Below are positions 2,176 through 37,182 of a DNA stretch of 37,515 nt, piece after piece. The position numbers and the translations under genes are program-made. The notes below the pieces were generated by a model. The model made no database searches and had not been told where the DNA came from. It saw only the letters and a list, made by a program, of their open reading frames with translations. This stretch comes from Xanthobacteraceae bacterium (GTDB taxonomy: Bacteria > Pseudomonadota > Alphaproteobacteria > Rhizobiales > Xanthobacteraceae): the NCBI GenBank assembly GCA_035601915.1, contig DATNNI010000178.1, positions 1-37,515 on the forward strand. Reading direction: 5' to 3'. Every line of letters starts with the position of its first letter. The first letter of the stretch is position 1.

Positions 2176-2700
2176 ATGGCCTCTTTCACGATAGGGCGTG
2201 TGCTGCGGCCAATTGCCCTTACGCTCGCCGGCGTCGTCACCATTGCCGCCTTCGCCGGACAAGCGGCCGCTCAGGGCGCCGTCCGGTCGGTCCATGGCGA
2301 CTGGCAGATTCGCTGCGACACGCCCCCCGGAGCGCAGAGCGAACAGTGCGCGCTCATGCAAAGCGTGACCGCTGAAGACAGGCCGAATGTCGGCCTCACC
2401 GTCATTGTGCTCAAGACCACCGATCAAAAGAGCCGATTGATGCGGGTGGTCGCCCCGCTCGGCGTATTGTTGCCGTCAGGACTGGGATTGAAAATCGACA
2501 ACAACGACGTCGGCCGTGCCGGCTTTGTGCGCTGCCTGCCCAACGGCTGCGTCGCCGAGGTCGTAATGGATGACAAACTCATCGAACAATTGCGCAACGG
2601 GCAGACCTCGACCTTCATCATTTTTCAGACGCCGGAGGAGGGCATAGGCTTTCCCATGAGCCTCAAGGGCTTTGGCGAGGGCTTCGACAAACTGCCGTAG
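2176..2700 (+). CDS. invasion-associated locus B (IalB) family periplasmic protein
   Basis: Internal ATG 2176 of track ORF 1735..2700. Signal peptide MASFTIGRVLRPIALTLAGVVTIAAFAGQAAAQ, then GDWQIRCD...QCALMQ...FVRCLPNGCVAEV, the pattern I recognise for IalB-family proteins. Confidence 0.8.
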   Translation: MASFTIGRVLRPIALTLAGVVTIAAFAGQAAAQGAVRSVHGDWQIRCDTPPGAQSEQCALMQSVTAEDRPNVGLTVIVLKTTDQKSRLMRVVAPLGVLLPSGLGLKIDNNDVGRAGFVRCLPNGCVAEVVMDDKLIEQLRNGQTSTFIIFQTPEEGIGFPMSLKGFGEGFDKLP

Positions 2701-2823
2701 TCCGACTACCGCCCTATTCTTCGCTCCCGGCCGCCTTGCCGCCGGCGCGATTGTGCTGCGCCTTTGAGCGATTACATTATGCGATGTCTATTGCCGAGAT
2801 AATGTCGGGAAGGCAGGCTTGTC

Positions 2824-3225
2824 ATGGACGCGAAACAATACCCGGTCACACACACCGACGCAGAGTGGCGCAAGCTCCTCACGCCGGAGCAGTTCCGCAT
2901 CATGCGCACGCACGGCACCGAGGCGCCCGGCAGTTGTGCGCTTAATTACGAAAAACGGGCGGGCACGTTCTTCTGCGCCGCATGTGAGCAGCCGCTGTTC
3001 GCCTCGAAGAAGAAATTCGAGAGCGGAACGGGATGGCCGAGCTTCAACGATCCTGAGCCCGGCGCAGTCGAGACGTCGGTCGACGACAGCTACGGGATGG
3101 CGCGGACCGAAGTGCATTGCAGCCGGTGCGGCAGCCATCTTGGTCATGTGTTCGAGGACGGGCCGCCGCCGTCGCATTTGCGCTATTGCATTAACGGCGT
3201 GGCGATGGACTTCAAGCCCGACTGA
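2824..3225 (+). CDS. msrB: peptide-methionine (R)-S-oxide reductase MsrB
   Basis: 133-aa ORF with Zn CxxC pairs (CAAC, CSRC) and catalytic GHVFEDGP...RYCING. Confidence 0.95.
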   Translation: MDAKQYPVTHTDAEWRKLLTPEQFRIMRTHGTEAPGSCALNYEKRAGTFFCAACEQPLFASKKKFESGTGWPSFNDPEPGAVETSVDDSYGMARTEVHCSRCGSHLGHVFEDGPPPSHLRYCINGVAMDFKPD

Positions 3226-3463
3226 GCCGGACGCCGCGGGGAGATCAGCAAATACGGCCGATTTCCGGCCTCGTTGTGGCCCGACCAATCACAAAATTGC
3301 AACGTCGCGCGGTAAAATTACGCGTGTGCGGCGCATCAAAATGTGGAACACTCCATTCGCTGAATCCTCGGACTGAAACGCCCACTGATGGCGTGTTTGG
3401 TTGGGACGATCTCTTCTTGGTTGCTAACCGAGGGGTCTGATCGCGCTCTAACACAAGTTCCGG

Positions 3464-5644
3464 ATGTGGCAGCTGATGCGCAGCGCACGGGAATCGGCCA
3501 CTCGCCTGTTGCAACTTATGATGATCGCCGCGGTGGTTTTACCGGCGGCGCTGTTCATCTATGCCGCGTGGGTCAGCTATCGCCAGTTTCACGACGTTGC
3601 CGACGAGCGCATTGGGCGCTCGCTCGACGTCATGCAGGAGCAGGCGCTTAAAGTCTTCGAGACCATCAACAGCACTTTTGCGGAGGTCAACGAGATCGTT
3701 CGCGGCATGTCGGATGCGCAGATTCGCGCCGGAGCGCCGCAACTTCACGAGCGCCTCGCCGACATTGTGGCGACGATGCCGCAGCTCAAGGCGATCGTGA
3801 TTGTCGGTCGTGACGGAACGCCGCTGGTCAGGAGCTTGTCTCCCATCGTTCCCGATGGCGTCAACTTCAGCGATCGGGACTATTTCAAAGCGCAACAATC
3901 GGGCGACGCGGGAACCTATGTGAGCAGCATGCGCTTGCCGCAATTGCCGGGAAGTGGTGGCGGCGAGTTCTTCGATCTTTCCCGGCGGCTGAAATCGCCC
4001 GACGGGTCTTTCGCCGGCGTCATCGCCATCGCAGTGCTGCCGGGTTACTTCGAGGACTTTTATCGGCTGATCGGCCGCGGCCCGGGCAATTTCTTTGCCT
4101 TGGTGCGCTCCGACGGTTCTTATCTCGCCCGCTATCCGGCACCCGACGACCGCTCGCAACGCTTAAGCGAAAACAGCATGTTGCGAACCGCCATCGACCG
4201 CGGCATCGATCAAGGTTTCTACACGGTGCATTCGGAAATCGACGGCGTCGTGCGCCGCATCAACTTTCGCAAGGTACCGAGCTTTTCGGTCTACGCGCTT
4301 GCCGGAGTGAGTGACGACGCGATCCGGGCCGAATGGCTCTCGAGCATGGCGACGCATTTACTGTACGGCCTCCCCGCAGTCATTTTGATCCTGGCTGTGC
4401 TGTTTTTGACCCTGCGCCGCACCCAGCGGCTCTACGAAGAAGCCGATCGCCGCGAAGCTGCGGAAATCGCGCTGCGGCAATCGCAGCGGCTCGAGGCCAT
4501 CGGGCAATTGACCGGGGGGGTCGCGCATGATTTCAACAACCTGTTGATGATCGTCAGCGGCAGCGTGCACCGGCTGCGCCGCGATGTCAGTGACGAGAAA
4601 CAACTGCGGCTTCTCGACGCCATCGTCAACGCGATCCGGCGCGGCGAGAGTCTGACCCGGCAATTGCTGTCGTTTTCGCGGCGGCAGACACTGCAGCCGA
4701 CGGTGATCGATCTGGCGGCCTGGCTGCCCGAGCTTAAGGAGATGCTCAGCCGGTCGTTACGCGGCGATATTGAAGTCCGCTTGCTGGTTCCGCGGCGGCC
4801 CTGTTTTGTCAAGATCGACGCCAGCGAACTCGAGCTTGCGCTCCTTAACCTCGCTTTCAATGCACGCGATGCCATGCCCTCGGGCGGGGTTCTGTCGATT
4901 ACGGCCAAGCCAATCACGCTACGCGGCAAGGCCGGCGAGGAAGGCTTGAGCGGCCCGTTTGTCGCCATCCGCGTCGCCGACAGTGGACAGGGAATTCCCG
5001 CCGACATTCTACCGCGGGTGTTCGAACCGTTTTTCACCACCAAAGAAGTGGGGAAGGGAACCGGGCTCGGGCTTTCCCAAGTTTACGGCTTCGCCAAGCA
5101 ATCCGGCGGCGCCGCCAACATCACCAGCACGCCTCGCCGTGGCACCGCGATTACACTGTTTTTGCCGCGCAGCTTTGAAGCGCAGGCGCAGCCCAGCGCT
5201 CTTCCCAAAGCCGCGGGCGCCGCTTTGCCCGGCGGCCCGGTGCTGGTAGTGGAAGATAATTCCGACGTCATCGAAGTGGCGCGCGGCTATTTTGCCGATC
5301 TCGGCTTCATCGCCAAGGTCGCGGCCAGCGCTCAAGAGGGCCTTGCGTTGGTCGAGCAGGATGACGGTATCGCGCTGGTGTTCTCCGACATATTGATGCC
5401 CGGCGGCGTGAACGGATTGGATCTGGCGAAAGAGCTGCGCCGGCGCTTTCCAAGCGTCGCCGTGCTGTTGACGACTGGATATAGCTCGAGCGCACAGGAA
5501 GCGGTGCGCGAGGGTTTCGAAGTGCTGCAAAAGCCGTACGACTTGGCCGCGCTCGAACGTGCTGTTCTTTCGGTTTTCAAACGGCACAACCGTGCGGCCG
5601 CTGCGCGGCAAGCCAGTCCCGCGCCGCAACGCGCCGCAGGGTAA
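3464..5644 (+). CDS. hybrid sensor histidine kinase/response regulator with periplasmic Cache-like sensor domain
   Basis: N-terminal TM, then a ~270-aa periplasmic region (DRDYFK..., Cache-like), a second TM, the H-box GGVAHDFNNLLMIV, and HATPase N/G boxes (NLAFNARDAM, GTGLGLSQVYGF). C-terminal receiver: VLVVEDNSDV...SDILMPGGVNG...KP. Confidence 0.9.
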   Translation: MWQLMRSARESATRLLQLMMIAAVVLPAALFIYAAWVSYRQFHDVADERIGRSLDVMQEQALKVFETINSTFAEVNEIVRGMSDAQIRAGAPQLHERLADIVATMPQLKAIVIVGRDGTPLVRSLSPIVPDGVNFSDRDYFKAQQSGDAGTYVSSMRLPQLPGSGGGEFFDLSRRLKSPDGSFAGVIAIAVLPGYFEDFYRLIGRGPGNFFALVRSDGSYLARYPAPDDRSQRLSENSMLRTAIDRGIDQGFYTVHSEIDGVVRRINFRKVPSFSVYALAGVSDDAIRAEWLSSMATHLLYGLPAVILILAVLFLTLRRTQRLYEEADRREAAEIALRQSQRLEAIGQLTGGVAHDFNNLLMIVSGSVHRLRRDVSDEKQLRLLDAIVNAIRRGESLTRQLLSFSRRQTLQPTVIDLAAWLPELKEMLSRSLRGDIEVRLLVPRRPCFVKIDASELELALLNLAFNARDAMPSGGVLSITAKPITLRGKAGEEGLSGPFVAIRVADSGQGIPADILPRVFEPFFTTKEVGKGTGLGLSQVYGFAKQSGGAANITSTPRRGTAITLFLPRSFEAQAQPSALPKAAGAALPGGPVLVVEDNSDVIEVARGYFADLGFIAKVAASAQEGLALVEQDDGIALVFSDILMPGGVNGLDLAKELRRRFPSVAVLLTTGYSSSAQEAVREGFEVLQKPYDLAALERAVLSVFKRHNRAAAARQASPAPQRAAG

Positions 5645-5826
5645 ACGGAGCGTTTCTTCCGAGATCCTATCTACGCGCGCCCATCAGGGCGCAGACGCCG
5701 ACGCTCGACAATCAATTGTTTAGCATGAACGCTGACGCGCAAAACTCCCCAGCCGAATTAAATGAAAGTAAAATTTGAACAACGATAGTCAGCCCGCGCT
5801 TAGGGTGGCGGTGATAACGCCGTCGA

Positions 5827-7815
5827 ATGGAGGCGGCGTTGGACGCAGATCGCATTGCCGCGGTATCAGAAAATTCAACGCCGCGGCGCGAGCAGCATGT
5901 CGGCAGCGTGCTCTCGGTGCGTGGTGCCGAAGCGAGTTTCGGTATCTTGCGCCGAAACGACGCGGCGGGCGAAACCGACGGCACGACCGTCGGCAAATTT
6001 CTCGCCATCGCCAGCAAAAATTCCCTGCTCATCGGTTTTGTAACAGAAGTCTCGGTTGAAGTGCCCGAGATTGTCCGCGAGCAAGGCTATGCCGGCTCCG
6101 CTCGCCTCGAGCTTATGGGCGAGATCAGGAAGGAACGGCACGGCACCAAGTTTCGGCGCGGCGTGACCGAATATCCGCTGATTGGCGATCCCGTGGTCAC
6201 GGTTGGCGCGGATGCGTTGCAGCTCATTTTTGGCCGCACCGGCGCGCAGAATATTGTTATCGGACGCTTGCAGCAAGAGCCGACCCTTGCCGCCTGCGTT
6301 CAAGTCGACGAGATGTTGAGCCGGCACTTTGCCGTGTTCGGGACCACAGGCGTCGGAAAATCGAGCGGCGTCGCCGTCCTTCTGCAGCAAGTCCTCAAGG
6401 CGCGGCCGAACCTGCGGATCTTTTTGCTCGATGCTCACAACGAATACGCGCGTTGCTTCGGCGATCAGGCGCACGTGGTCAATCCGGGAAATTTGAAGTT
6501 GCCGTTTTGGCTGTTCAATTTCGAAGAACTGGTCGACGTCATATTCGGCGGTCGCAGTCCGGGCGTGGAGGACGAATTTCAGATCCTCGCTGAGCTCATT
6601 CCCATCGCCAAGTCCATGTACGTCCAGTACCAGACGGTCGGCAGCCGCACGAGCGCCAAGAAACTGGATTCAAAGAATACCGGCTTCACCGTCGACACGC
6701 CGGTTCCCTATCGTCTCGCCGATCTGGTTTCGCTTATCGATGACCGCTTGGGCAAGCTCGAGAATCGCTCGTCGCGCATGAAGTATTTCAAGCTGATCAT
6801 GCGCATCGAAGCGGTGAGCAATGACCCGCGCTACAATTTCATGTTCGAAAACGCCAATGTCGGCGGCGACACGATGGCGGAGGTGATTTGCCATCTGTTC
6901 CGCATCGCGCCCGGCGCCAAGCCGATGACGGTCATGCAACTGGCTGGACTGCCGGTCGAAGTCGTGGATTCGGTGGTCTCGGTGGTCGGACGGATGGCGT
7001 TCGAGTTCGGGCTTTGGAGCGATGGCGCATTTCCCATCCTGTTCTTTTGCGAAGAGGCGCACCGCTACGCCTCGGCCGATCGCGCGCTAGGCTTCGGTCC
7101 GACGCGGCGCGCCTTGTCCAGAATTGCGAAGGAAGGCCGCAAATGCGGCGTTTTCCTCGGGCTTGCCAGCCAGCGTCCGGCGGAACTCGATGCCACCATC
7201 ATTTCCCAGTGCAGCACGCTGTTCGTCATGCGCATGGCGAACGATCGCGACCAAGCGATCATTCGCTCGGCGGTGTCCGACGCTGCCGCGAGCCTGGTCA
7301 ACCTGGTGTCGTCGCTCGGAACCCGCGAGGTGCTCGCGTTCGGCGAGGGCGTTTCGTTGCCGGTGCGGATGGTGTTTGCCGATCTGCCCAAAGACCTAAT
7401 CCCGAGCAGCGAGGCGGTACGCAACACTCACGCCGGCACGACGCGAGAGGCCGCGCACGATCAGGTCGACATGATTGTGGCGCGCTGGCGCGGCGCCAGT
7501 ATAAACAACAAGAACTTGCAGCTTGAAGAAGGGCCTGTTGCGCCGGCGGCGCCGTCAAAGGCCGTACCGCCATCGGCCAAAAGCGTCACGCCGCAGCCAG
7601 CGCTGCATGTTTCGGCGCCCGAGCATTCAAATGGCGCGGCGCACCAGCAATCGCTGCGTGCTTCCGTGCTTGAGCGTTCCAGCATCCTGAAGAAGAACGT
7701 GTCGTTGGGCCAACAAGCTTCGGGCCAACAATCTTCGGGCCAGCAGGCGCCCGCCCAGGCATCGCCGCCTAGGTCGCAACTGCCCGACGCTCAAGACGGT
7801 CGCTGGCCTCTCTAG
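5827..7815 (+). CDS. HerA-like (DUF87/COG0433) P-loop ATPase with a C-terminal low-complexity tail
   Basis: N-terminal barrel-like region. Walker A FGTTGVGKSSG (aa 171-181), Walker B PILFFCEEAHRY (aa 403-414), then GLASQRPAELDATIISQCSTLFVMRM. The last ~100 aa are P/A/S/Q-rich. Confidence 0.8.
   Translation: MEAALDADRIAAVSENSTPRREQHVGSVLSVRGAEASFGILRRNDAAGETDGTTVGKFLAIASKNSLLIGFVTEVSVEVPEIVREQGYAGSARLELMGEIRKERHGTKFRRGVTEYPLIGDPVVTVGADALQLIFGRTGAQNIVIGRLQQEPTLAACVQVDEMLSRHFAVFGTTGVGKSSGVAVLLQQVLKARPNLRIFLLDAHNEYARCFGDQAHVVNPGNLKLPFWLFNFEELVDVIFGGRSPGVEDEFQILAELIPIAKSMYVQYQTVGSRTSAKKLDSKNTGFTVDTPVPYRLADLVSLIDDRLGKLENRSSRMKYFKLIMRIEAVSNDPRYNFMFENANVGGDTMAEVICHLFRIAPGAKPMTVMQLAGLPVEVVDSVVSVVGRMAFEFGLWSDGAFPILFFCEEAHRYASADRALGFGPTRRALSRIAKEGRKCGVFLGLASQRPAELDATIISQCSTLFVMRMANDRDQAIIRSAVSDAAASLVNLVSSLGTREVLAFGEGVSLPVRMVFADLPKDLIPSSEAVRNTHAGTTREAAHDQVDMIVARWRGASINNKNLQLEEGPVAPAAPSKAVPPSAKSVTPQPALHVSAPEHSNGAAHQQSLRASVLERSSILKKNVSLGQQASGQQSSGQQAPAQASPPRSQLPDAQDGRWPL
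7708..7752 (+). repeat. about 3 imperfect in-frame 15-bp tandem units (GQQxS)n at the 3' end of the HerA-like gene
   Basis: ggccaacaagcttcg / ggccaacaatcttcg / ggccagcaggcgccc, read directly. They encode GQQASGQQSSGQQAP. Confidence 0.7.
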
Positions 7816-8582: not shown

Positions 8583-8610
8583 CGGCGAGGAGACTCGCCG
8601 TTTGTTTTTT
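8583..8610 (+). terminator. Rho-independent terminator of the DUF992-like gene
   Basis: cggcgag-gaga-ctcgccg followed by tttgtttttt. The T-tract overlaps the stop codon of the convergent gene. Confidence 0.7.
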
Positions 8611-9841
8611 AATCCAGCACGTGACTGGCCATGCCGTCGGCGAGCTTCGGCTCGAACCAGGTGGATTTCGGCGGCATGATCGCACCGGCGTCGGCGACCG
8701 CCATGAGGTCGCGCATCTGCGTCGGGTAAAGTACGAAGCCCACCGCCATCTTCCCCGAAGATAGGAGGCGCTCGATCTCGTCCGCGCCACGCCCGCCGCC
8801 GACGAAATCGATGCGGGGATCGGTGCGCGGCGCAGCGACGCCGAAGATCGGTTCGATAACGTTGCGATGAAGGAGCGTGACGGGCAGCCGCTCGATCGGA
8901 CCGGCTCCGGCTTCGGCCAGAGACTCTTTCCGCAGAACGAGGCGGTACCAACCGCCTGCGAGATACATTCCGACTTCGTGCGCTTGCGACGGCCTCACCG
9001 CCCGATTACTTGGCTCGACGTCGTAGCGCTCGCGTAATCTTCCCAAGACCTCTGCCGCGGTCTGTCCATTAAGGTCGCGCAGCACGCGATTGTATTCGAG
9101 AATGGTCATCTCGGCTTCCGGAAACAACACGGCAAGAAAATAGAGATAACTGCGCGGGCTTTGGCCAGCGCGAGCCGTGGCCACGCGTTGTGCCGCCGCT
9201 GAACGGTGGTGGCCGTCGGCAATATAAAGCGTCGGCAAAGCGTCGACCGCCCGTGTGAGTGCGCTTATAGCGGCGTCATTATCAACCACCCACAACTGAT
9301 GCCGCACGCCATCGTCCGCGGTCACGTCGACTGCCGCCTCACCGGCGGCGGCCCGCGCCAAGAGGGCGTCGATCTCGGGAGCATTTGGGTAAGCAACCAT
9401 GACTGGGCCGGTCTGCGCGTTGACCGCCTCGATCTGCCGCACGCGGTCGTCCTCCTTGGCCGGCGTCGTAAGCTCGTGCTTGCGAATTTGGTTCTCGGCA
9501 TAGGCGGCAATCGATGCGACTGCCGCTAAGCCGGTTTGCACTCCGCCGCGCCAAGTGAGCCGGTAAGCGTAATAACAATCCTTGGCATCGCGCACGAGCA
9601 CGCCGGCTGCGATCATGCGCTGCAAGTTTTCCGCGGCTTTGGCGTACACGGCCGAATCGTACGGATTTATAGATGGATCGAGGTCGATCTCCGCCTTGGA
9701 GACGTGAAGAAAGCTAAACGGCTTGTCCTTGGCGCGCTCCCGCGCCTCCGCGCTCGAGAGCACGTCATAAGGCGGCCCCAAAACCTCGGCGGCGCGCCCG
9801 GGCGCCGGCCGCAATGCGCGAAAAGGTTTGATCAGGGACAC
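8609..9841 (-). CDS. DUF1015 domain-containing protein
   Basis: 410-aa ORF with a GTG start and GGAG 9 nt upstream. N-terminus MSLIKPFRALRPAPGRAAEVLGPPYDVLS plus IADGHHRSAAA are as I remember for DUF1015/COG4198. Confidence 0.8.
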   Translation of the reverse strand: MSLIKPFRALRPAPGRAAEVLGPPYDVLSSAEARERAKDKPFSFLHVSKAEIDLDPSINPYDSAVYAKAAENLQRMIAAGVLVRDAKDCYYAYRLTWRGGVQTGLAAVASIAAYAENQIRKHELTTPAKEDDRVRQIEAVNAQTGPVMVAYPNAPEIDALLARAAAGEAAVDVTADDGVRHQLWVVDNDAAISALTRAVDALPTLYIADGHHRSAAAQRVATARAGQSPRSYLYFLAVLFPEAEMTILEYNRVLRDLNGQTAAEVLGRLRERYDVEPSNRAVRPSQAHEVGMYLAGGWYRLVLRKESLAEAGAGPIERLPVTLLHRNVIEPIFGVAAPRTDPRIDFVGGGRGADEIERLLSSGKMAVGFVLYPTQMRDLMAVADAGAIMPPKSTWFEPKLADGMASHVLD

Positions 9842-28758: not shown

Positions 28759-29823
28759 TTATTGCTTGCGGTTGACGAACAGCGCGTTGCCGAGGCCGGT
28801 GCCGATGGTGAAGGTCGCCCAGCTTTCGACATCGTCCATGCGCGGGACTTCGCTCAAGCCCTGCACCACCGCGTCGTTATGCATCACGATCGCGGTCTCA
28901 TGGTCGCCGATGCGAGGGATCGCCTCAAACAACACTTTCGGGAGATTGAAGCGGCTGCTTTCCCAGTTGCCCGGCAAGTTCTGAGCGCCGGCTTCGATCG
29001 AGCCGTCGGCGTCGATTTTGCCCGGACAGCCGATGCCGATGAACGGCGCGAGGCGTAACTCTTCTTTTTTGGCGCGATTGATCAGACGTCGCAGCATACT
29101 GATTAAACCTTCGACTGCTTCCTCGCGGTTGAGCTTTTCGTCGCCATGACGCCACAGCTCGAACTTCCACACCTTAGCCTTCGACAAATCCGAGGCGTTG
29201 CGCAGGTTAAGTTGCACCACGCCGGCGCGGATATTGGTGCCGCCGATATCAATGGCAAGGATGGCGTCATGCGCCTCGAACATCCATGCCGGCGCGAGCT
29301 GTGCGGCGCCGAGAAGTCCGGCCTCGTCGGGATCGTTGCGGATGATGCAAATCTCGGTATCGATTTTGTCGGCCTTCAACAACACCGACGTGCGGCCGAT
29401 GGCAAGCTCGCCGACACGACTGCCGGCGAAACCGCCGCCGATCACTATGCGCGACGCGTCCTTCCAGCCCTTGAGCTTGAGAAAGCGCCGCAGCACCACG
29501 GCGAGCTCTTGCGCGAACGATTCGATGGCGCTTTGAATAATACCGGCAGTTTCAGGATCGCCGCTGGCGAACAGTTGGTCGAGCTTTTTCTTCGCGATCT
29601 TGCTCGATGGCTCGTCGCCGAACGGGTCATGATTGAGGTCGCGCAACGGCTTTCGCCAATTTTCAATAAACTTGCGGAATGCGCCCTTGCTGGCGCGATC
29701 GCCGATGAAGCCCTCATCGTCCTTTAATTCGACGTTGTAATCCGCGACTTCCACTGCCGGAAGGCGCGCGGCGCCATGCGCAAGCGCCGGTGCTGCCACA
29801 TTTGCCGAGGATTGTTTGCCCAT
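28759..29823 (-). CDS. ROK/PpgK-like ASKHA sugar kinase with apparently circularly permuted motif order
   Basis: Order in the ORF: IVIGGGF (aa 126-132) and NDPDEAGLLGAAQLA (163-177) precede LAIDIGGTN (189-197), GIGCPG (263-268), HNDAVV (315-320) and TIGTGLG (339-345). The protein ends at aa 354. Confidence 0.75.
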   Translation of the reverse strand: MGKQSSANVAAPALAHGAARLPAVEVADYNVELKDDEGFIGDRASKGAFRKFIENWRKPLRDLNHDPFGDEPSSKIAKKKLDQLFASGDPETAGIIQSAIESFAQELAVVLRRFLKLKGWKDASRIVIGGGFAGSRVGELAIGRTSVLLKADKIDTEICIIRNDPDEAGLLGAAQLAPAWMFEAHDAILAIDIGGTNIRAGVVQLNLRNASDLSKAKVWKFELWRHGDEKLNREEAVEGLISMLRRLINRAKKEELRLAPFIGIGCPGKIDADGSIEAGAQNLPGNWESSRFNLPKVLFEAIPRIGDHETAIVMHNDAVVQGLSEVPRMDDVESWATFTIGTGLGNALFVNRKQ

Positions 29824-29854: not shown

Positions 29855-31120
29855 TCACGCGCTTTGGTGCGCGGCCGGGCCCTGCGAAAGGGTCACTGAG
29901 TGACTGAGCAGCCGGATGATTTCATCGGCGACCTGCGCGGCAGGCGGACCCACATCGACGGTCAGCGGATCTTCACTCGGGTCAGGTTCTTCGAGCGTGT
30001 CGATTTGGCTTCGCAGTAGTTCCGGCGGCATGAAATGACCGTGGCGTCCCGCCAGATGCTCGGCGATTAAGTCCCGACCGCCGCGCAAATAGACCAGCCG
30101 GACTTCCGGCCGGTCGCCGATGATGATTTGCCGGTAGGCATGTTTGAGCGCCGAGCACGCGATAATTCCCGGCTCCTTTTTGGCGCGCTGCCGATCGATC
30201 CAGGCGGCGACGCGTTCAAGCCATGGCAGCCGGTCGGCGTCTGTGAGCGGAATGCCGGCGTGCATCTTGGCGATGTTCGCCTCCGGATGCAGAGAATCAC
30301 CCTCCTCGAACGGCCAGCCGAGGCGGGCGGAAAGTTCTTCGGCGATAGTCGATTTGCCGGAGCCCGATACGCCCATGACCACCAGGATTGGCGGACTTCC
30401 GCGATGACGGCCAGCGCTGTCGAGACGACGCACGCCGGCGGCGTCGGCAACGAAAACCGGATCGGCCCGGCCCACGAAAAGCCCGTTCTCCACGACACCG
30501 ACGATGCGCCTGGTCCGCTCCTCGAGCCGCGCCGGATCGTCGATGCGGCCAAAATCGCAATCGAGAATGCAGTTGCCGCCGTCAGTGAGGAATGGCACGC
30601 CGGATGAATGCCGCAGGCGTGCGCTGGCGCCAAGCACTTCGAGCGACTCGCGCGTCGCCTCCAGGCCGAAGGCGACCACTTCCACCGGGAGCGGCATTCG
30701 CGCGCCGAGCCGGTCGACCATCTTGCTGCCGTCGACGACAATGGCGAGGCGGTGGCTCGCGGCCGCGACGATCTTCTCGCGCAACAGTGCGCCGCCGCCA
30801 CCCTTGATCAGATTGAGCGTCCCGTGCTCGACCTCGTCGGCGCCATCGATAGTCAGGTCGATTTGCCGGTGCGCGCGGAACGAGGTCAGCGCAATTCCGG
30901 CTGCCTTCGCCTGCATGGCCGTGCGCTCCGAGGTGGCAATGCCGACAAAACGCAGTCCTTCGCGTTGACGCCGCGCCAGCGTCTCGACCGCGAATGCGGC
31001 GGTCGTACCGCTGCCGAGCCCGACGACCATGTCATTCTCGACCATTTGCACCGCGGCCTCGGCTGCGGCGCGCTTGAGAGCATCGACATCGGCAGCCGCC
31101 GCAGAAGGGGAGGTTTTCAT
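29855..31120 (-). CDS. bifunctional fusion: ribose-5-phosphate isomerase A (N-terminal) and gluconokinase (C-terminal)
   Basis: aa 1-234 are RpiA ([42 protein letters not shown]). aa ~245-421 are GntK/IdnK type ([18 protein letters not shown]...[28 protein letters not shown]...IIACSALK). Confidence 0.88.
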
Positions 31121-31857
31121 GAGGCGACCGCCGCTGCGGCCGCCTTGGCGCGAAGCTCGGCTATCGCGTTGGCGTAATCCTTGGCGCCAAAAATTGCCGA
31201 ACCGGCAACAATCGCGTTAGCGCCGGCGGCGGCAGCTTGTGCGGCCGTTGTCGCGTTCTCGCCGCCGTCGACTTCGATGACCGGCTGTAAGCCGCGCTCG
31301 CCGCACATCGCGCGCAGGCGGCGAATCTTGGGCAGCATTTCAGGAATGAAGCGTTGGCCGCCAAAACCGGGATCGACGGTCATGACCAGAATGACGTCGC
31401 ACAAATGCACGACATACTCGACGAGCTCCGGCGGCGTCGCAGGATCGAGCACGACGCCGGCCTTTTTGCCCAGCGCGCGAATGTTCGACAGCACCCGATG
31501 CAGATGGATCGTCGAGCCGGGTTCGGCCTGCACCAGGAGATGATCAGCGCCGGCCTCGGCGAAGGCGGCCAGATAGCGTTCCGGTTCGACAATCATCAAA
31601 TGAACGTTGAGCGGTTTTGCCGTCGCGCGGCGAATCGCCGCCAGCACCGCCGGACCAACGGTGATGTTCGGAACGAAATGTCCGTCCATCACATCGACAT
31701 GAATCCAGTCCGCGCCGGCCTTGTCGATGGCGCGGACCTCTTCATCCAAGCGGGCGAAATCGGCGGAGAGAATTGAGGGCGCGATAATGATTGATGACTT
31801 CCGGCTGCTTCGGTCCGGCTCCTCGGCCGCGAGTCTGGACGCCGTGCCCGACATCAT
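31117..31857 (-). CDS. rpe: ribulose-phosphate 3-epimerase
   Basis: [41 protein letters not shown]... The ATG at 31857 overlaps the pgl stop (ATGA). Its own stop overlaps the rpiA::gntK ATG (ATGA). Confidence 0.93.
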
Positions 31858-32612
31858 CGCGCCCGCGGTCCCGGGGGCACGGTCGCCTGTTCTCCACCCG
31901 CGGCCGCTCGATCGGCGAACCAAATCAACTCGCCGACCGGCCGGACGCGTGCCGCCGGCACGTCGCTGTTGCCGCTTCGGATCGCGCTGAAGATTGCGGC
32001 CTTTTCTTCGCCCGCTACGAGGAACGCGACCCGCCGGCTGCTGTCAATCGCGGGATAGGTCAGCGTGATGCGAACCTCGGGGCGGCCATGCGAGACGTCT
32101 GCCACCCAGCGCTTGCGCTCGTTCAATACGGATTCTCCGGGCAGCAGCGACGCGGTGTGGCCGTCGGCGCCGATCCCGAGCAGGGTAATGTCAAACAGGG
32201 GACGCTGCGGGTCCAGGGTGGCCGCGCCATAGGCATCCTGCAAAGTCCGCTCATAGCGCCGCGCCGCGTCTTCAGGCGTGCCGTCGGTCGGAATTGGATG
32301 AACGTTCTCCGGCGGTACCGGCGCCTTTGACAGCATGGCTTCGCGGGTCATCAGGTAGTTACTGTCGGGATGATCGTAGGGGACGAAGCGTTCATCGCCC
32401 CAGTACCAGAAGACGCGCGACCACGGGAAACGCGCCTTAAATTCACCGGCGGCGAGCAAACCGTACAGCGTCTTCGGCGTCGAGCCGCCGGAGAGCGAGA
32501 CGCGGAATGGGCCGCGTGCCGCCAGCGCCGCCTGCGTCATCCATTCCGCTACGTGATGCGCCAGCGCTGGCGGATCCGGGAATATTTCAACGCGGCCGAC
32601 CGCCCCGCTCAT
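31854..32612 (-). CDS. pgl: 6-phosphogluconolactonase
   Basis: Internal ATG 32612, 4 nt after the upstream stop. [11 protein letters not shown]...[15 protein letters not shown]...[15 protein letters not shown]-like motifs. Confidence 0.9.
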
Positions 32613-32616
32613 GTGC

Positions 32617-33435
32617 CTAGTGCCTCGCAGACAGGATGAAGGCCTCCATCGCTTTGGCAAAACCTTCGTCATTGTAGGACGCTGTAACGGCCGAGGCTTG
32701 CGCCTTGACCTCGTCCGAGGCGTTGCCCATGGCGATGCTGAATCCCGAGCGCTTGAACATCAGCACGTCGTTTATTTGGTCGCCGACGGTCGCGATTTCT
32801 TCCGTGGGCACGCCGAGATGCTGCGACAGATATTCCACCACGGCGCCTTTGTTCGCATCCTTGTTGGTGACGTCGAGATAATACGGTTGCGACCGGGTAG
32901 CGGTAGCGCGCTGGCCGAACGCGGCTTGCGCCTCAGCCTCGCAGTCTCGCACCTTGTCGAGATCGTCGCTGACGCCAACAATCTTGGCGACGTCCTGCAG
33001 ATGCTCGCGAACGTCCGACACGACTTTAGCCTCGAATTTGACCGTCCAAGCCTCGCGGGCGACATGTGGCGCATCGGCCTTGGTGATCAGCCAATCGTTG
33101 CCGCTATAGACCCAGGTATCGAGACCGCGTGTCCGCATCAGCTCGATGGCTTCGCGCGCGACGTCAACCGGCACTGTTTTTTGTTCCAGAATAGTGAGAT
33201 CGCGCTTGACGAACAGCCCGCCGTTAAAGCCGGCAATCGGCGTATCGATGTCGAGCGGATCGAACAACATTGCCATACCAAGTGGCGGCCGGCCGCTGGT
33301 TATTGCGAAACGGATACCGGCGTCGCGCAGCGCGTTAACGGCTTTGCGCGCCCGATCGGTCAATATCTTGTCCTCGGTGACAAGCGTGCCGTCGACATCG
33401 GCCAGCACCAACGCGATCTTACGCTTTGCGGCCAT
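32617..33435 (-). CDS. Cof-type HAD-IIB family sugar-phosphate phosphatase
   Basis: Internal ATG 33435. LVLADVDGTLV (motif I), ITSGRP (motif II), and KG...VGDQINDVLMF (motifs III/IV). Confidence 0.85.
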   Translation of the reverse strand: MAAKRKIALVLADVDGTLVTEDKILTDRARKAVNALRDAGIRFAITSGRPPLGMAMLFDPLDIDTPIAGFNGGLFVKRDLTILEQKTVPVDVAREAIELMRTRGLDTWVYSGNDWLITKADAPHVAREAWTVKFEAKVVSDVREHLQDVAKIVGVSDDLDKVRDCEAEAQAAFGQRATATRSQPYYLDVTNKDANKGAVVEYLSQHLGVPTEEIATVGDQINDVLMFKRSGFSIAMGNASDEVKAQASAVTASYNDEGFAKAMEAFILSARH

Positions 33436-35023
33436 CGGTGTTTCCGGTTGGGTGATCGAGCGAGCGCCATGCGCGGCGGTCGCGCGCCAGTAATTCATCC
33501 GCCGCGGCGGGCCCGTCGCTGCCTGCGGTATAATTCGGAAAGTCCCTGGGCGGATTGTCGGCCCAGGTATCGAGAATAGGCTGCACCACCTTCCAGCCGG
33601 CTTCCACGGTGTCGGCGCGCTGAAACAGCGTGGCGTCGCCGATCATGCAATCGTAGAGCAGCGTCTCGTATCCGGTATTGGGAGCGACCTTGAAATAGGT
33701 TTTGTAAGCGAAATCCATGCTCACGGTGTCGAGCGTCACGGTCGGGCCGGGACGCTTTGCTGCGAATTCAAGCGCGATGCCCTCGTCAGGTTGAATGCGA
33801 AGGATCAGCCAGTTCGGGTTCATTCGCTCCACATTGGTGTCGCGGAACAAGGCATACGGGGCTTGGTGAAAGCGGATCGCGATCTCTGTTGACCGGCGTT
33901 TCATGTATTTGCCGGTGCGTAAGTAGAATGGCACGCCGGCCCAGCGCCAATTGTCGATATTCAGTTTGCAGGCAACATAGGTCTCGGTCGCCGAATTCGG
34001 CGCCACATCGGGTTCCAGCCGATAGGCTTGAACTTGTTTGCCCAAAACCTGCCCAGCGCCATATTGCCCGCGCACGACATCTTTTAGCACCTTGGCTGCA
34101 TCGAGGGGTTTGATGGCCTGGATCACTTCAGTCTTCTTGGCGCGGACCGCGTCGGCATCAAAAGAGATCGGCGGCTCCATCGCGGTCATCGCCAATAGCT
34201 GGAATAGATGATTCGGCACCATGTCGCGCAGCGCGCCGGTCTTCTCGTAGAACTTGCCACGGTGCTCGACGCCGACCGTCTCCGCGACGGTGATCTGGAC
34301 ATGGTCGATCTGCTGCCGGTTCCAGAGCGGCTCGAACAAGCCGTTGGCAAAGCGCAGCGCCATGATGTTTTGGACCGTTTCCTTACCGAGGAAATGATCG
34401 ATCCGATAAATCTGAGGCTCTTGCAGCGTCTTTAGAATTCCGGCGTTGAGGGCTTTGGCCGAAGCGAGGTCATGGCCGAAGGGCTTTTCGATAATGACGC
34501 GGCGCCATTGTTGCCCGGTTTCGGTCGTGAGACCGGCGGCGCCTAGCGCGGCGACCGCCGGGCCGAAGAAGCGGTCGGAGACCGCGAGATAGAAAAGGTA
34601 ATTCCCGGAGGTGCCGGCCGACTTGTCCAGCGCGGCCAGATGGTCGCGCAGTTTCGCGTAGGCGCCGGCGTCATTGATATCGCCTTGGACATAGCTCATG
34701 CGCTCGCTGAGCCAGCTCCATGCCGAGTGGTCGATCGCGTCGACGTGGAACTCCCCGCCCTGGCCGACGAAATCTTCCATCGCGGCGCCGAGGTCTTTTC
34801 GCCATCGCTCGATGCTGCGGGCGTTGTGGTCGAAACCGACGAGTTGGAAATGATTTGAGAGCTGTCCCGCCTGGGCCAGGTTGTAGAGGGCCGGAACCAC
34901 CAAACGTTTGGTAAGATCGCCCGCTGCGCCGAAGATCACCATGGCGCAGGGGGGCGCCGGGGCCGCGCTTGCAGTTTGTTGCGCGGCTTTTGGTTGGGCG
35001 CTTTTACCGGATTTATCCAGCAT
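33419..35023 (-). CDS. zwf: glucose-6-phosphate 1-dehydrogenase
   Basis: Internal ATG 35023 (MLDKSGKS...) with an AAGGA RBS. VIFGAAGDLTKRLVVPALYNL, RIDHFLGKE, EKPFGHDL. Confidence 0.95.
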   Translation of the reverse strand: MLDKSGKSAQPKAAQQTASAAPAPPCAMVIFGAAGDLTKRLVVPALYNLAQAGQLSNHFQLVGFDHNARSIERWRKDLGAAMEDFVGQGGEFHVDAIDHSAWSWLSERMSYVQGDINDAGAYAKLRDHLAALDKSAGTSGNYLFYLAVSDRFFGPAVAALGAAGLTTETGQQWRRVIIEKPFGHDLASAKALNAGILKTLQEPQIYRIDHFLGKETVQNIMALRFANGLFEPLWNRQQIDHVQITVAETVGVEHRGKFYEKTGALRDMVPNHLFQLLAMTAMEPPISFDADAVRAKKTEVIQAIKPLDAAKVLKDVVRGQYGAGQVLGKQVQAYRLEPDVAPNSATETYVACKLNIDNWRWAGVPFYLRTGKYMKRRSTEIAIRFHQAPYALFRDTNVERMNPNWLILRIQPDEGIALEFAAKRPGPTVTLDTVSMDFAYKTYFKVAPNTGYETLLYDCMIGDATLFQRADTVEAGWKVVQPILDTWADNPPRDFPNYTAGSDGPAAADELLARDRRAWRSLDHPTGNTDGRKA

Positions 35024-35085
35024 CGATGTCCTTGTTTTCTTACCCGCTCCCAAGCTCGATACTCGCGCGTCGCAAAGACACCGCG

Positions 35086-37182
35086 TCAATTGCGACCGAG
35101 AAGCTCCAAAGCAACAGAAACGACCCGGTCGGGTTCGAAACCGAACTTGCGGTCTAATTCTTTCAGCGGCGCCGACGCGCCGAAAGTCTTCATGCCGATG
35201 ACGCGGCCGGCGGGCCCGATATAGCGGTCCCAACCGAGAGTCGAGCCCTGCTCGACCGCGAGGCGTGCTTTTATTGCGGGCGTCAGGACCTCGTCGCGAT
35301 ATGACTGGGGTTGCTGTTCGAAAATGTCCCACGACGGCATCGACACAACACGCGACCGAATCCCTTGCGCCGCAAGCGCGTCGTGCGCCTGAACGACCAA
35401 GGCGACCTCGCTTCCCGAAGCGATGAGAATGATTTCCGGCGATCCGCCGGACGCCTCCGCCATGACATAGGCGCCGCGCGCCACGCCAGCGGCGGATGCG
35501 TATTTGCCGCGATCGAATGTTGGCAGCGCCTGGCGCGACAGCGCGAGCAAAGCCGGCTGGTGGCGAAGTTGGAGGATGTACCGGTAAGCTTCGACGACCT
35601 CGTTGGCGTCCGCCGGACGAATGACGACGAGGCCGGGAATGGCGCGCAGCGCAATAAGCTGCTCGACCGGCTGATGCGTCGGTCCGTCTTCGCCGTCGCC
35701 CATGGCGTCATGCGTGCACACCAAAATGGTTGGCAGCTCCATGATTGCCGAGAGCCGAATGGCCGGCCGCGCGTAGTCGGTAAACACAAGGAATGTCGAG
35801 CCGTAAGCGCGCAGCTTCGAGAGCGACAGTCCGTTGACGATCGCCGTCATGGCGTGCTCGCGGATGCCGAAATGTAGATTGCGGCCGCTTGGCGATCCGG
35901 GTTCAAAGTCGCCGGCGCCCGGGAACGTGAGTGCCGTACGATTTGACGACGCAAGATCGGCGGACCCGCCCATAAACCATGGAATGTTTTGGGCGAGAAC
36001 GTTGAGCACTTTGCTTGACGCGTCGCGCCCGGCTATGCCCTTCGCGTCCGCTGGAAAGCTCGGCAGATTGCGGTCCCATCCGGCGGGCAACTCCCGCCGT
36101 TCCATCAAGTCGATCTCGGTCGCGAGGTCGGCGAATTGTTTGCGGTATTCGCCAAACATTGTCTCCCATTCGGCCCGGGCCTTGCCGCCGCGCTGGCCGA
36201 TGCCGTCGGCGAAACGCTGCACCACGCCGTCGGGCACGAGGAACTGGGCGTCTTCCGGCCAGTGATAGGCGCGCTTGACGAGCCGCACCTCCTCTACGCC
36301 CAAAGGCTCGCCGTGCGCTGCGGAGGTATCCATCTTGTGCGGCGACCCGTAACCGATGTGACTATCGAGAATAATCAGCGTCGGGCGGTCTTCGGTCTTG
36401 CGAAAGGCGGCGAGCGCGTCGGCAATGCTCGTAAGGTCGTTGGCATCGGTGACGTGCAGCACGTTCCAATGGTAGGCGGCAAAGCGCGTGGCGACGTCTT
36501 CGGTGAAGGTGATACGGGTCTTGCCATCGATGGTGATGTGATTGTTGTCGTAAATCCAACAAAGATTATCGAGGCAGAGATGACCGGCAAGCGAGGCCGC
36601 CTCGGAGCCGACGCCCTCCATCAAGTCGCCGTCGCCGCAAACGGCGTAAATATCATAATCGAAGACATCTAAGCCGGGCTTGTTGTAGCGCGCGGCAAGC
36701 CATTTCCGCGCAATCGCCATGCCGACGCTGTCGGAGATGCCCTGGCCCAGCGGGCCGGTCGTTGCCTCTACGCCGGACGTTAAATGATATTCAGGATGCC
36801 CCGGCGCTTTGCTGCCGAGCTGGCGAAAATGTTTGATGTCGTCGAGCGTGACCGCCGGTGCGCCAAGACGCTCGTATTGCGCGTTCACCGCGCGCGTACC
36901 GGTGAGAAACAACACAGACCACAACAGCATACAGGCGTGGCCGTTCGACAGCACGAAGCGATCGCGGTTGGGCCAAATCGGGTCCTGTGGATCGAAGTTC
37001 AGTACCTCGTTCCAGATCACATAGACGAGCGGCGCCAGCGCCATAGGCGTGCCGGGATGGCCCGAATTCGCCTTCTGAACCGCATCGATCGAAAGCGTGC
37101 GAATGGTATTGATCGCAAGCTCATCGAGTTCGTCGCTGCTCAAAGCCTTCGGTTTTGTCTGTTGCACAGCGCTCAACTCCAT
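35086..37182 (-). CDS. tkt: transketolase
   Basis: 698 aa. ANSGHPGTPMALAP, RDRFVLSNGHACMLLW, GDGDLMEGV, and a C-terminal domain. Confidence 0.96.
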   Translation of the reverse strand: MELSAVQQTKPKALSSDELDELAINTIRTLSIDAVQKANSGHPGTPMALAPLVYVIWNEVLNFDPQDPIWPNRDRFVLSNGHACMLLWSVLFLTGTRAVNAQYERLGAPAVTLDDIKHFRQLGSKAPGHPEYHLTSGVEATTGPLGQGISDSVGMAIARKWLAARYNKPGLDVFDYDIYAVCGDGDLMEGVGSEAASLAGHLCLDNLCWIYDNNHITIDGKTRITFTEDVATRFAAYHWNVLHVTDANDLTSIADALAAFRKTEDRPTLIILDSHIGYGSPHKMDTSAAHGEPLGVEEVRLVKRAYHWPEDAQFLVPDGVVQRFADGIGQRGGKARAEWETMFGEYRKQFADLATEIDLMERRELPAGWDRNLPSFPADAKGIAGRDASSKVLNVLAQNIPWFMGGSADLASSNRTALTFPGAGDFEPGSPSGRNLHFGIREHAMTAIVNGLSLSKLRAYGSTFLVFTDYARPAIRLSAIMELPTILVCTHDAMGDGEDGPTHQPVEQLIALRAIPGLVVIRPADANEVVEAYRYILQLRHQPALLALSRQALPTFDRGKYASAAGVARGAYVMAEASGGSPEIILIASGSEVALVVQAHDALAAQGIRSRVVSMPSWDIFEQQPQSYRDEVLTPAIKARLAVEQGSTLGWDRYIGPAGRVIGMKTFGASAPLKELDRKFGFEPDRVVSVALELLGRN

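Follow-up and report, generated by a model that had tools for sequence, protein, structure and literature searches.

Evidence for a circularly permuted ROK-type sugar kinase encoded at the end of a pentose-phosphate gene cluster in a Xanthobacteraceae bacterium

Introduction

The window analyzed here is a stretch of 37,515 nucleotides (nt) from a Xanthobacteraceae bacterium (assembly GCA_035601915.1, contig DATNNI010000178.1, positions 1 to 37,515 of the forward strand). One of its genes, located between positions 28759 and 29823 on the minus strand, encodes a protein of 354 amino acids (aa) that carries the motifs of the ROK sugar kinases, a branch of the ASKHA fold, in an order that differs from the canonical one. 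A preliminary description of the window had read this protein as a single ASKHA/ROK kinase with its C-terminal half relocated to the N-terminus and had considered a glucokinase role plausible. The question raised by the locus is whether such an order belongs to one complete and functional kinase and, if so, which sugar the enzyme would act upon. The profile comparisons, structure prediction and homologue searches given below indicate that the target protein is, with little doubt, a permuted ROK-type kinase. It is likely, judging from sequence features, that it represents a conserved, catalytically competent member of the ROK branch that would phosphorylate a hexose; glucose is proposed as that hexose in a tentative manner, as an assignment that falls somewhat short of likely.

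Motif organization of the target protein

Translation of the open reading frame (ORF) located every motif at the residues given in the preliminary description, with the stop codon nine residues after G345 and with no CxCGxxGC motif. The ASKHA motif set, i.e., PHOSPHATE-1, PHOSPHATE-2, and ADENOSINE, is present and conserved in its entirety. The linear order is ADENOSINE, PHOSPHATE-1, PHOSPHATE-2, unlike the canonical ASKHA order of PHOSPHATE-1, PHOSPHATE-2, ADENOSINE. Three alignments were used to assess conservation and to compare profiles: A1, with 36 family members in native order that share 34–85% identity with the target; A2, with 30 of the A1 members re-permuted in silico such that residues 184–354 precede residues 20–183; and A3, with five ROK proteins of E. 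coli K-12 (NanK, NagK, Mak, AlsK, and the Mlc core). The features of the gene, in the order of the protein chain, are as follows.

28759–29823, minus strand, whole gene, 354 codons and a stop codon, of the permuted ROK-like ASKHA kinase
29275–29784, minus strand, residues 14–183, equivalent to the C-terminal part of canonical ROK kinases (hhalign and Foldseek of this half)
29680–29784, minus strand, residues 14–48, conserved new N-terminal segment (A1 and hhalign)
29428–29448, minus strand, residues 126–132, ADENOSINE motif IVIGGGF, aligning to ROK 'VViGGg'
29293–29337, minus strand, residues 163–177, NDPDEAGLLGAAQLA, aligning to the ROK C-terminal 'D.aG..GAA.L', helix 165–176 in the model
29266–29292, minus strand, residues 178–186, linker joining the ancestral C- and N-termini, between the independently matching halves, with a short helix at 179–183
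28762–29274, minus strand, residues 184–354, equivalent to the N-terminal part of canonical ROK kinases (Pfam ROK, hhalign, and Foldseek)
29233–29259, minus strand, residues 189–197, PHOSPHATE-1 motif LAIDIGGTN, Asp and first Gly invariant in A2
29020–29037, minus strand, residues 263–268, GIGCPG, ROK small-domain loop, P267 and G268 nearly invariant in A1
28864–28881, minus strand, residues 315–320, HNDAVV, containing Asp317, N316 and D317 invariant in A2
28789–28809, minus strand, residues 339–345, PHOSPHATE-2 motif TIGTGLG at the new C-terminus, with nine residues left before the stop codon

The PHOSPHATE-1 motif was verified base by base. In A1, G129 and G130 of the ADENOSINE motif are almost invariant, and G172 is invariant within the segment NDPDEAGLLGAAQLA, the counterpart of the helix at the C-terminus of canonical ROK kinases. 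The residues invariant in A2 include the Asp of DIGGT, N316, D317, T339, G341, and G345 as well as the GGG motif. Asp317, in the N-D-A motif that comes after small-domain strand 5, aligns to the invariant Asp of A3, at the position of the catalytic base in ROK kinases. As judged by these conserved motifs, the catalytic and adenosine triphosphate (ATP)-binding machinery of the protein is intact. The only cysteines of the kinase are C159 and C266.

Sequence and profile analysis of the two halves

Comparison with the Pfam ROK model (PF00480) showed that residues 189–353 correspond to profile positions 2–143 of 294 (E 1.6e-10). The score was 41.4 bits against a gathering cut-off of 22.9, and the best stretch spanned half of the profile. 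When the N-terminal 183 residues were scanned alone, they matched the other end of the same profile, at positions 180–292 (E 0.0095). The same half-length behaviour was observed with the NCBIfam ROK models, among which one N-acetylmannosamine kinase model additionally matched residues 101–177 at its positions 215–286 of 288. Circular permutation explains these half-length hits to domain models.

Profile–profile comparison with hhalign was carried out between the family alignments and the ROK profile of 310 columns built from A3, with the following results.

Native order (A1): residues 188–354 to ROK columns 3–158, probability 96.7%, E 3.6e-10, score 79.5
Re-permuted order (A2): positions 5–334 to ROK columns 3–300 of 310, probability 98.6%, E 7.3e-16, score 116
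N-terminal half alone: residues 80–181 to ROK columns 205–299, probability 91%, E 9e-7, score 48.9
C-terminal half alone: re-permuted positions 5–169 (native residues 188–352) to ROK columns 3–146, probability 97%, E 6.5e-11, score 75.4

A full-length colinear alignment to ROK was thus obtained only after re-permutation, the native order covering residues 188–354. Each half is significant by itself against opposite ends of the ROK profile, and the motif order is therefore more than a chance arrangement. This bears out the reading of the protein as one kinase with its C-terminal part transferred to the N-terminus. An alignment of the re-permuted sequence to the polyphosphate/ATP-glucomannokinase 1woq likewise continued through the artificial join. 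No family or solved structure was found to align colinearly with the protein over its whole length in the Pfam, NCBIfam, and Protein Data Bank (PDB) comparisons.

Predicted tertiary structure

Structure prediction by AlphaFold2, with A1 as the input alignment, gave one compact fold with a mean predicted local distance difference test (pLDDT) value of 94.1 and a predicted template modelling (pTM) score of 0.91. Disorder was confined to the first few residues, and both terminal strands were modelled with confidence. From the N-terminus, the model comprises a strand at 24–29; helices at 40–62, 78–86, and 90–115; a strand at 125–129 that carries the GGG motif; a helix at 136–151; a strand at 157–160; the 'C-terminal' helix at 165–176; and a short helix at 179–183. 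These are followed by strands at 187–193 (DIGGT), 197–204, and 217–225; a helix at 233–253; a strand at 258–266 (GCPG); a helix at 294–301; a strand at 311–316 (HNDA); a helix at 317–323; and finally strands at 334–340 (TIGTG) and 344–351. Two domains are formed, each with the strand-and-helix pattern expected of the ASKHA fold. The order of the elements is permuted; it is the ROK/ASKHA topology read from another starting point, with the cut separating strand 2 from strand 3 in the large domain.

The path of the chain may accordingly be described as follows. Residues 14–183 supply large-domain strand 3, a block of helices, the strand with the adenosine motif, and the helix that closes the fold, and residues 184–354 contain the small domain in full and, from the large domain, the phosphate-2 hairpin. 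The chain would thus begin with large-domain strand 3 and run through the helical block and the adenosine motif to the formerly C-terminal helix, from which the linker 178–186 would lead directly into the first small-domain strand (DIGGT). The complete small domain, with the GCPG loop and the presumed catalytic Asp in HNDA, would come next, and the chain would end just past the phosphate-2 hairpin. Both new termini would lie inside the large-domain sheet, precisely at the site that in ROK proteins is taken up by the signature, the sugar-binding ExGH motif, and the zinc motif.

A search of the PDB with Foldseek returned the ROK kinases 2qm1, 2yhy, 3r8e, 5nck, 3vov, and 4htl as the best folds. 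These matches extended over 164–172 columns, i.e., half of the protein, with a root-mean-square deviation (rmsd) of 2.5–3.3 Å and a template modelling score (TM-score) of about 0.4. All matches at E ≤ 1e-3 were ASKHA proteins. The tandem-duplicated hexokinases 1 and 2 alone took the whole chain sequentially, over 404–420 columns, which is the behaviour that a permuted query should show with a tandem reference. No solved structure in the PDB was found by Foldseek to be colinear with the full-length model. The N-terminal half modelled alone gave a pLDDT of 90.8, and the top 16 of its Foldseek matches, and 18 of the top 19, were ROK kinases or repressors (133–166 columns, probability 0.98–1.0, E 4e-3 to 5e-2).

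Conservation and distribution of the permuted layout

A word-indexed protein search at E ≤ 1e-3 identified at least 8000 homologues. The 120 best listed were mostly 340–390 aa in length, and nearly all of them carried a ROK domain. An exhaustive search of cluster representatives, defined at 50% identity, returned 1354 clusters at E ≤ 1e-3 and 239 at E ≤ 1e-30, with full-length members colinear with the query down to 36% identity. By genome scan the family was found in at least 589 species genomes, with carriers that include metagenome-assembled genomes of Xanthobacteraceae as well as Bradyrhizobium, Rhodoplanes, Pseudolabrys, Hyphomicrobium, and Astrobacterium. The clade is mainly one of soil Alphaproteobacteria, among them Xanthobacteraceae, Bradyrhizobium, Rhodoplanes, and Hyphomicrobium.

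The motif order was counted in 165 retrieved family proteins of 320–400 aa, of which 121 allowed all four motifs to be scored. Every one of the 121 has the order adenosine, phosphate-1, N-D, phosphate-2, and none has the canonical order. The tail after phosphate-2 has a median length of 10 residues (152 motif-bearing sequences of the 165). The region around residues 180–190, at which the preliminary description had considered a misassembly junction, is conserved in A1, and the recurrence of the layout across the species genomes excludes such a junction. In five divergent rows of A1 (P0149, P0157, P0175, P0188, and P0189), DIGGT and/or GTG is lost and the layout is kept; 'AELSGHVFR' and 'TIGERAGTA' are examples of the degenerate motifs in this branch. 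From their sequences, these five may be inactive paralogues.

Copies with 64–70% identity to the target were seen in four assemblies (L023, L043, L045, and L071) labelled Actinomycetes, Binatia, Acidobacteriota, and Steroidobacteraceae, and all four are of the alphaproteobacterial type of the gene. Likewise, P0276, whose cluster representative is 61% identical, comes from a record labelled Leptospira interrogans. For these copies, mis-binning or contamination is the more probable explanation, ahead of wide transfer.

The permuted gene probably arose when a ROK gene was duplicated in tandem or fused and both ends were then lost, a route for which no intermediate was found. Four longer relatives (P0145, P0176, P0126, and P0130) were examined and showed no tandem-duplication intermediate or informative fusion; their extra length resembles mis-called starts, frameshifted reads, and low-complexity tails.

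Loss of the ROK signature and the new N-terminal segment

The CxCGxxGC zinc motif and the ExGH motif were not found in the target. As positive controls, the zinc motif was detected in all five E. coli ROK proteins and ExGH in four of the five. A PROSITE-type ROK signature pattern spanning phosphate-2 to ExGH matched NanK, NagK, Mak, and AlsK; it gave no match in the target in either the native or the re-permuted order. The stretch covered by the pattern is the one within which the chain ends and begins.

The region is occupied instead by the new N-terminal segment (residues 14–48), with the consensus HGA..LP.V.V..Y..EL.D..GF.GDRAS, in which Y29 is almost invariant in A1. With A2, hhalign placed residues 22–48 on the 'GH...CxCGxxGCxE..S' region of ROK, and nine ROK columns preceding the 'GH' of ExGH fell opposite a gap in the re-permuted alignment. 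The resemblance of residues 30–48 to the segment that follows phosphate-2, which had been noted in the preliminary description, is thereby upheld, as it is by the alignment to 1woq that crosses the join. From these alignments, the acceptor pocket appears to be rebuilt by the family-specific N-terminal segment.

Genomic context of the kinase gene

The target is the last gene of a same-strand cluster, tkt-zwf-HAD-pgl-rpe-rpiA/gntK, which encodes transketolase, glucose-6-phosphate dehydrogenase (G6PD), a HAD phosphatase, 6-phosphogluconolactonase, ribulose-phosphate epimerase, and an RpiA-gluconokinase.

29855–31120, minus strand, RpiA-GntK fusion, 31 nt upstream of the target (NCBIfam, both parts above cut-offs)
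31117–37182, minus strand, cluster of tkt, zwf, Cof-type HAD phosphatase, pgl, and rpe in transcription order (Pfam; HAD assignment by a separate scan)

The fusion protein consists of ribose-5-phosphate isomerase A at residues 11–234 (NCBIfam RpiA, 259 bits) and a GntK/IdnK-type gluconokinase at residues 246–403 (TIGR01313, 174 bits). The placement of the kinase as the last gene of a pentose-phosphate operon therefore stands for this window; it does not hold as a general feature, the linkage being kept in 2 of 80 related loci (L001 and L002), which belong to the closest relatives. A weak terminator-like hairpin is present at 29858–29873 on the minus strand, with a 5-bp GC stem followed by TGAACTTTTT; it overlaps the end of the rpiA-gntK gene and lies just upstream of the start codon of the target. 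The longest ORF of zwf (33419–35332, minus strand, 637 aa) overlaps the end of the transketolase gene (35086–37182, minus strand) by 247 nt. Its G6PD domain begins at residue 132, so that the true start is probably further downstream. Similar mechanical overlaps were observed for the ORFs of pgl, rpe, and the HAD phosphatase.

No neighbour is universally conserved across the 80 loci. At the locus of one relative (L088, positions 655–2719), a canonical Glk-type glucokinase gene is followed after 14 nt, on the same strand, by the gene of the family member P0141 (39% identical), and the pair looks like an operon. At that of another (L089, positions 2442–7008), P0138 is divergent from the genes of a PfkB-family kinase and a GH65 glycoside phosphorylase, and genes for a LacI-type regulator and a rhamnosidase are nearby. 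Downstream of the gene in one clade is a carbon monoxide/xanthine-dehydrogenase-type cluster, an assignment made solely from visible features of the sequence, and in Bradyrhizobium the family gene is found near rplU (ribosomal protein L21) and obg. Elsewhere in the window, a HerA/DUF87-type ATPase gene (5827–7815, plus strand) and a DUF1015 gene (8609–9841, minus strand) are placed among the housekeeping genes coxB, miaA, ilvI, ilvC, and leuA and a gene for a xanthine-dehydrogenase-type molybdoenzyme.

Probable function and substrate

A role of the target in sugar metabolism is supported by the gene context, and the narrower role of a hexose kinase, probably one for glucose, is plausible and weakly supported. 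In the proposed mechanism, ATP or another phosphoryl donor would be bound in the inter-domain cleft, and a hexose would be phosphorylated with Asp317 as the general base. At this locus the hexose would most likely be glucose, and the glucose-6-phosphate formed would be passed to Zwf of the same cluster; the presence of zwf, pgl, and gntK in the cluster fits a kinase that supplies glucose-6-phosphate.

Several observations weigh against this interpretation. The curated models for glucokinase, allose kinase, N-acetylmannosamine kinase, and polyphosphate-glucokinase all scored far below their cut-offs, with 33.7 bits against 260 for the ROK glucokinase subfamily (TIGR00744) and 14.9 bits against 250 for polyphosphate glucokinase (PpgK; NF045942). 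The glucokinase role considered in the preliminary description stays plausible at the level of an inference, and the specific affinity to PpgK suggested there was not borne out. As the ExGH and zinc elements are absent and the pocket appears rebuilt, the substrate is not transferable by homology. Pentose-phosphate genes are lacking near the family gene in 77 of the 80 related loci, and most of the distant members are stand-alone genes. The hairpin before the start codon makes co-transcription with the operon uncertain and perhaps partial. The adjacency to Glk in L088 makes a simply redundant glucokinase less likely at that locus. Finally, closure of the chain into one two-domain fold is a prediction founded on pTM, per-residue confidence, and the order of the elements.

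A serious rival, slightly less probable than the glucose reading, is that the target is a permuted ROK-type kinase for a substrate other than glucose (a different hexose, or else an amino sugar or sugar acid) or that it uses a different phosphoryl donor. In that case, the gene would have come to lie beside pentose-phosphate genes only recently and in this lineage alone. The replacement of ExGH and the zinc motif, which shape the sugar pocket in ROK proteins, by a family-specific segment speaks for such a substrate, as do the canonical glucokinase gene directly adjoining the family gene in L088, the PfkB kinase and GH65 phosphorylase adjoining it in L089, the stand-alone position of the gene in most genomes, and the lack of any curated kinase equivalog model near its cut-off. 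In the window, however, the gene follows zwf, pgl, and gntK, for which a supplier of glucose-6-phosphate is the simplest fit, and the best among the weak NCBIfam matches is the ROK glucokinase subfamily. Moreover, the sugar loops of the small domain (GCPG, the AQNLPGNWE segment, and N-D) are typical of ROK hexose kinases, in which GCPG, AQNLPGNWE-type, and N-D loops take part in sugar binding.

A non-catalytic ROK-like protein, i.e., a sugar sensor or a partner of a regulator that keeps the fold without kinase activity, is improbable. ROK families do include the non-kinase repressors Mlc and NagC, and the divergent P0149, P0157, P0175, P0188, and P0189 have a degenerate phosphate-1 or phosphate-2 motif; yet the ATP-binding and catalytic motifs are intact and invariant in the target and in most of the family, and no DNA-binding domain was detected by the Pfam scan. 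Least probable is an artefact (misassembly, frameshift, or fusion of two ROK gene fragments) or an obligate domain-swapped dimer of complementary halves: the motif order alone could suggest a junction near residues 180–190, but the artefact is effectively refuted by the full-length layout seen in at least 589 species genomes and at least 8000 database proteins down to 34% identity, by the conserved junction region, and by the next downstream gene, which at a distance of 102 nt leaves no space for a frameshifted continuation, and the compact monomer model with its pTM of 0.91 disfavours artefact and dimer alike.

Significance of the permuted kinase

Recognition of the permutation bears on annotation, as thousands of database entries are half-covered by domain models and a proper family model can now be made. 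In the databases the members are named 'ROK family protein', 'hypothetical protein', or 'predicted NBD/HSP70 family sugar kinase'. From the standpoint of evolution, the family is a deeply conserved natural example of an ASKHA kinase fold that accommodates new termini within the large-domain sheet. These termini adjoin the active site, and the family signature and the metal site are lost, which makes the clade useful for studies of fold plasticity and, in engineering, for split or permuted kinase sensors. With regard to physiology, the protein is a candidate for feeding the oxidative pentose-phosphate route with hexose phosphate in soil Alphaproteobacteria, which are abundant.

No description of a permuted ROK, ASKHA, or sugar kinase was found in the literature that was searched, from which most subscription journals were left out, so that this negative is weak and not a proof of novelty. 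It is conceivable, and put forward with reserve, that the family is the first recognised natural circular permutation in the ROK/ASKHA sugar-kinase lineage and an old, widespread clade with a substrate or donor specificity of its own; the permutation would then have destroyed the signature, ExGH, and the zinc site, and the new N-terminal segment would have rebuilt the acceptor pocket.

Comparison with known sugar kinases

Among the known systems, those closest to the target are the ROK sugar kinases (PF00480), for example, the glucokinase of Streptomyces griseus (3vgk), the ROK hexokinase of Thermus thermophilus (3vov), and the glucokinase of Enterococcus faecalis (2qm1), together with the ROK N-acetylmannosamine kinases (2yhy, 5nck, and 2aa4). 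The target shares with them the two-domain ASKHA fold, DxGGT, GxGxPG, N-D, GTGxG, GGG, and the closing GAA-type helix, and for both of its halves they rank first in the sequence, profile, and structure comparisons. It differs from them, as from all ROK proteins so far characterised, in its permuted order, and also in the absence of the ROK signature, ExGH, and CxCGxxGC, and sequential alignments to them cover half of the protein.

The polyphosphate/ATP glucomannokinase and polyphosphate glucokinase (1woq; NF045942) are likewise of the ROK type, and 1woq is aligned by the re-permuted target. Like the target, kinases of this group are not known to carry the zinc motif. Unlike the target, 1woq has the canonical order and keeps ExGH ('AELGH'). 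No indication of polyphosphate use by the target was obtained in this analysis.

The tandem hexokinases 1 and 2 (1dgk, 1hkc, and 5hfu) have the ASKHA hexokinase fold in common with the target, and the alignment runs from one of their units into the next, whereby they illustrate the duplication route to a permutation. Unlike the target, they are two-unit enzymes of about 900 residues that are not permuted; the overall rmsd is about 30 Å, and they are not close relatives. Glk (PF02685) is also an ASKHA glucose kinase and is encoded beside a family member in L088; it is the expected supplier of glucose-6-phosphate to Zwf. It belongs, however, to a different family with the canonical order, and the target has no Pfam match to PF02685. 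Taken against these systems, the target protein is a kinase of a known kind from a permuted clade rather than a new kind of system.

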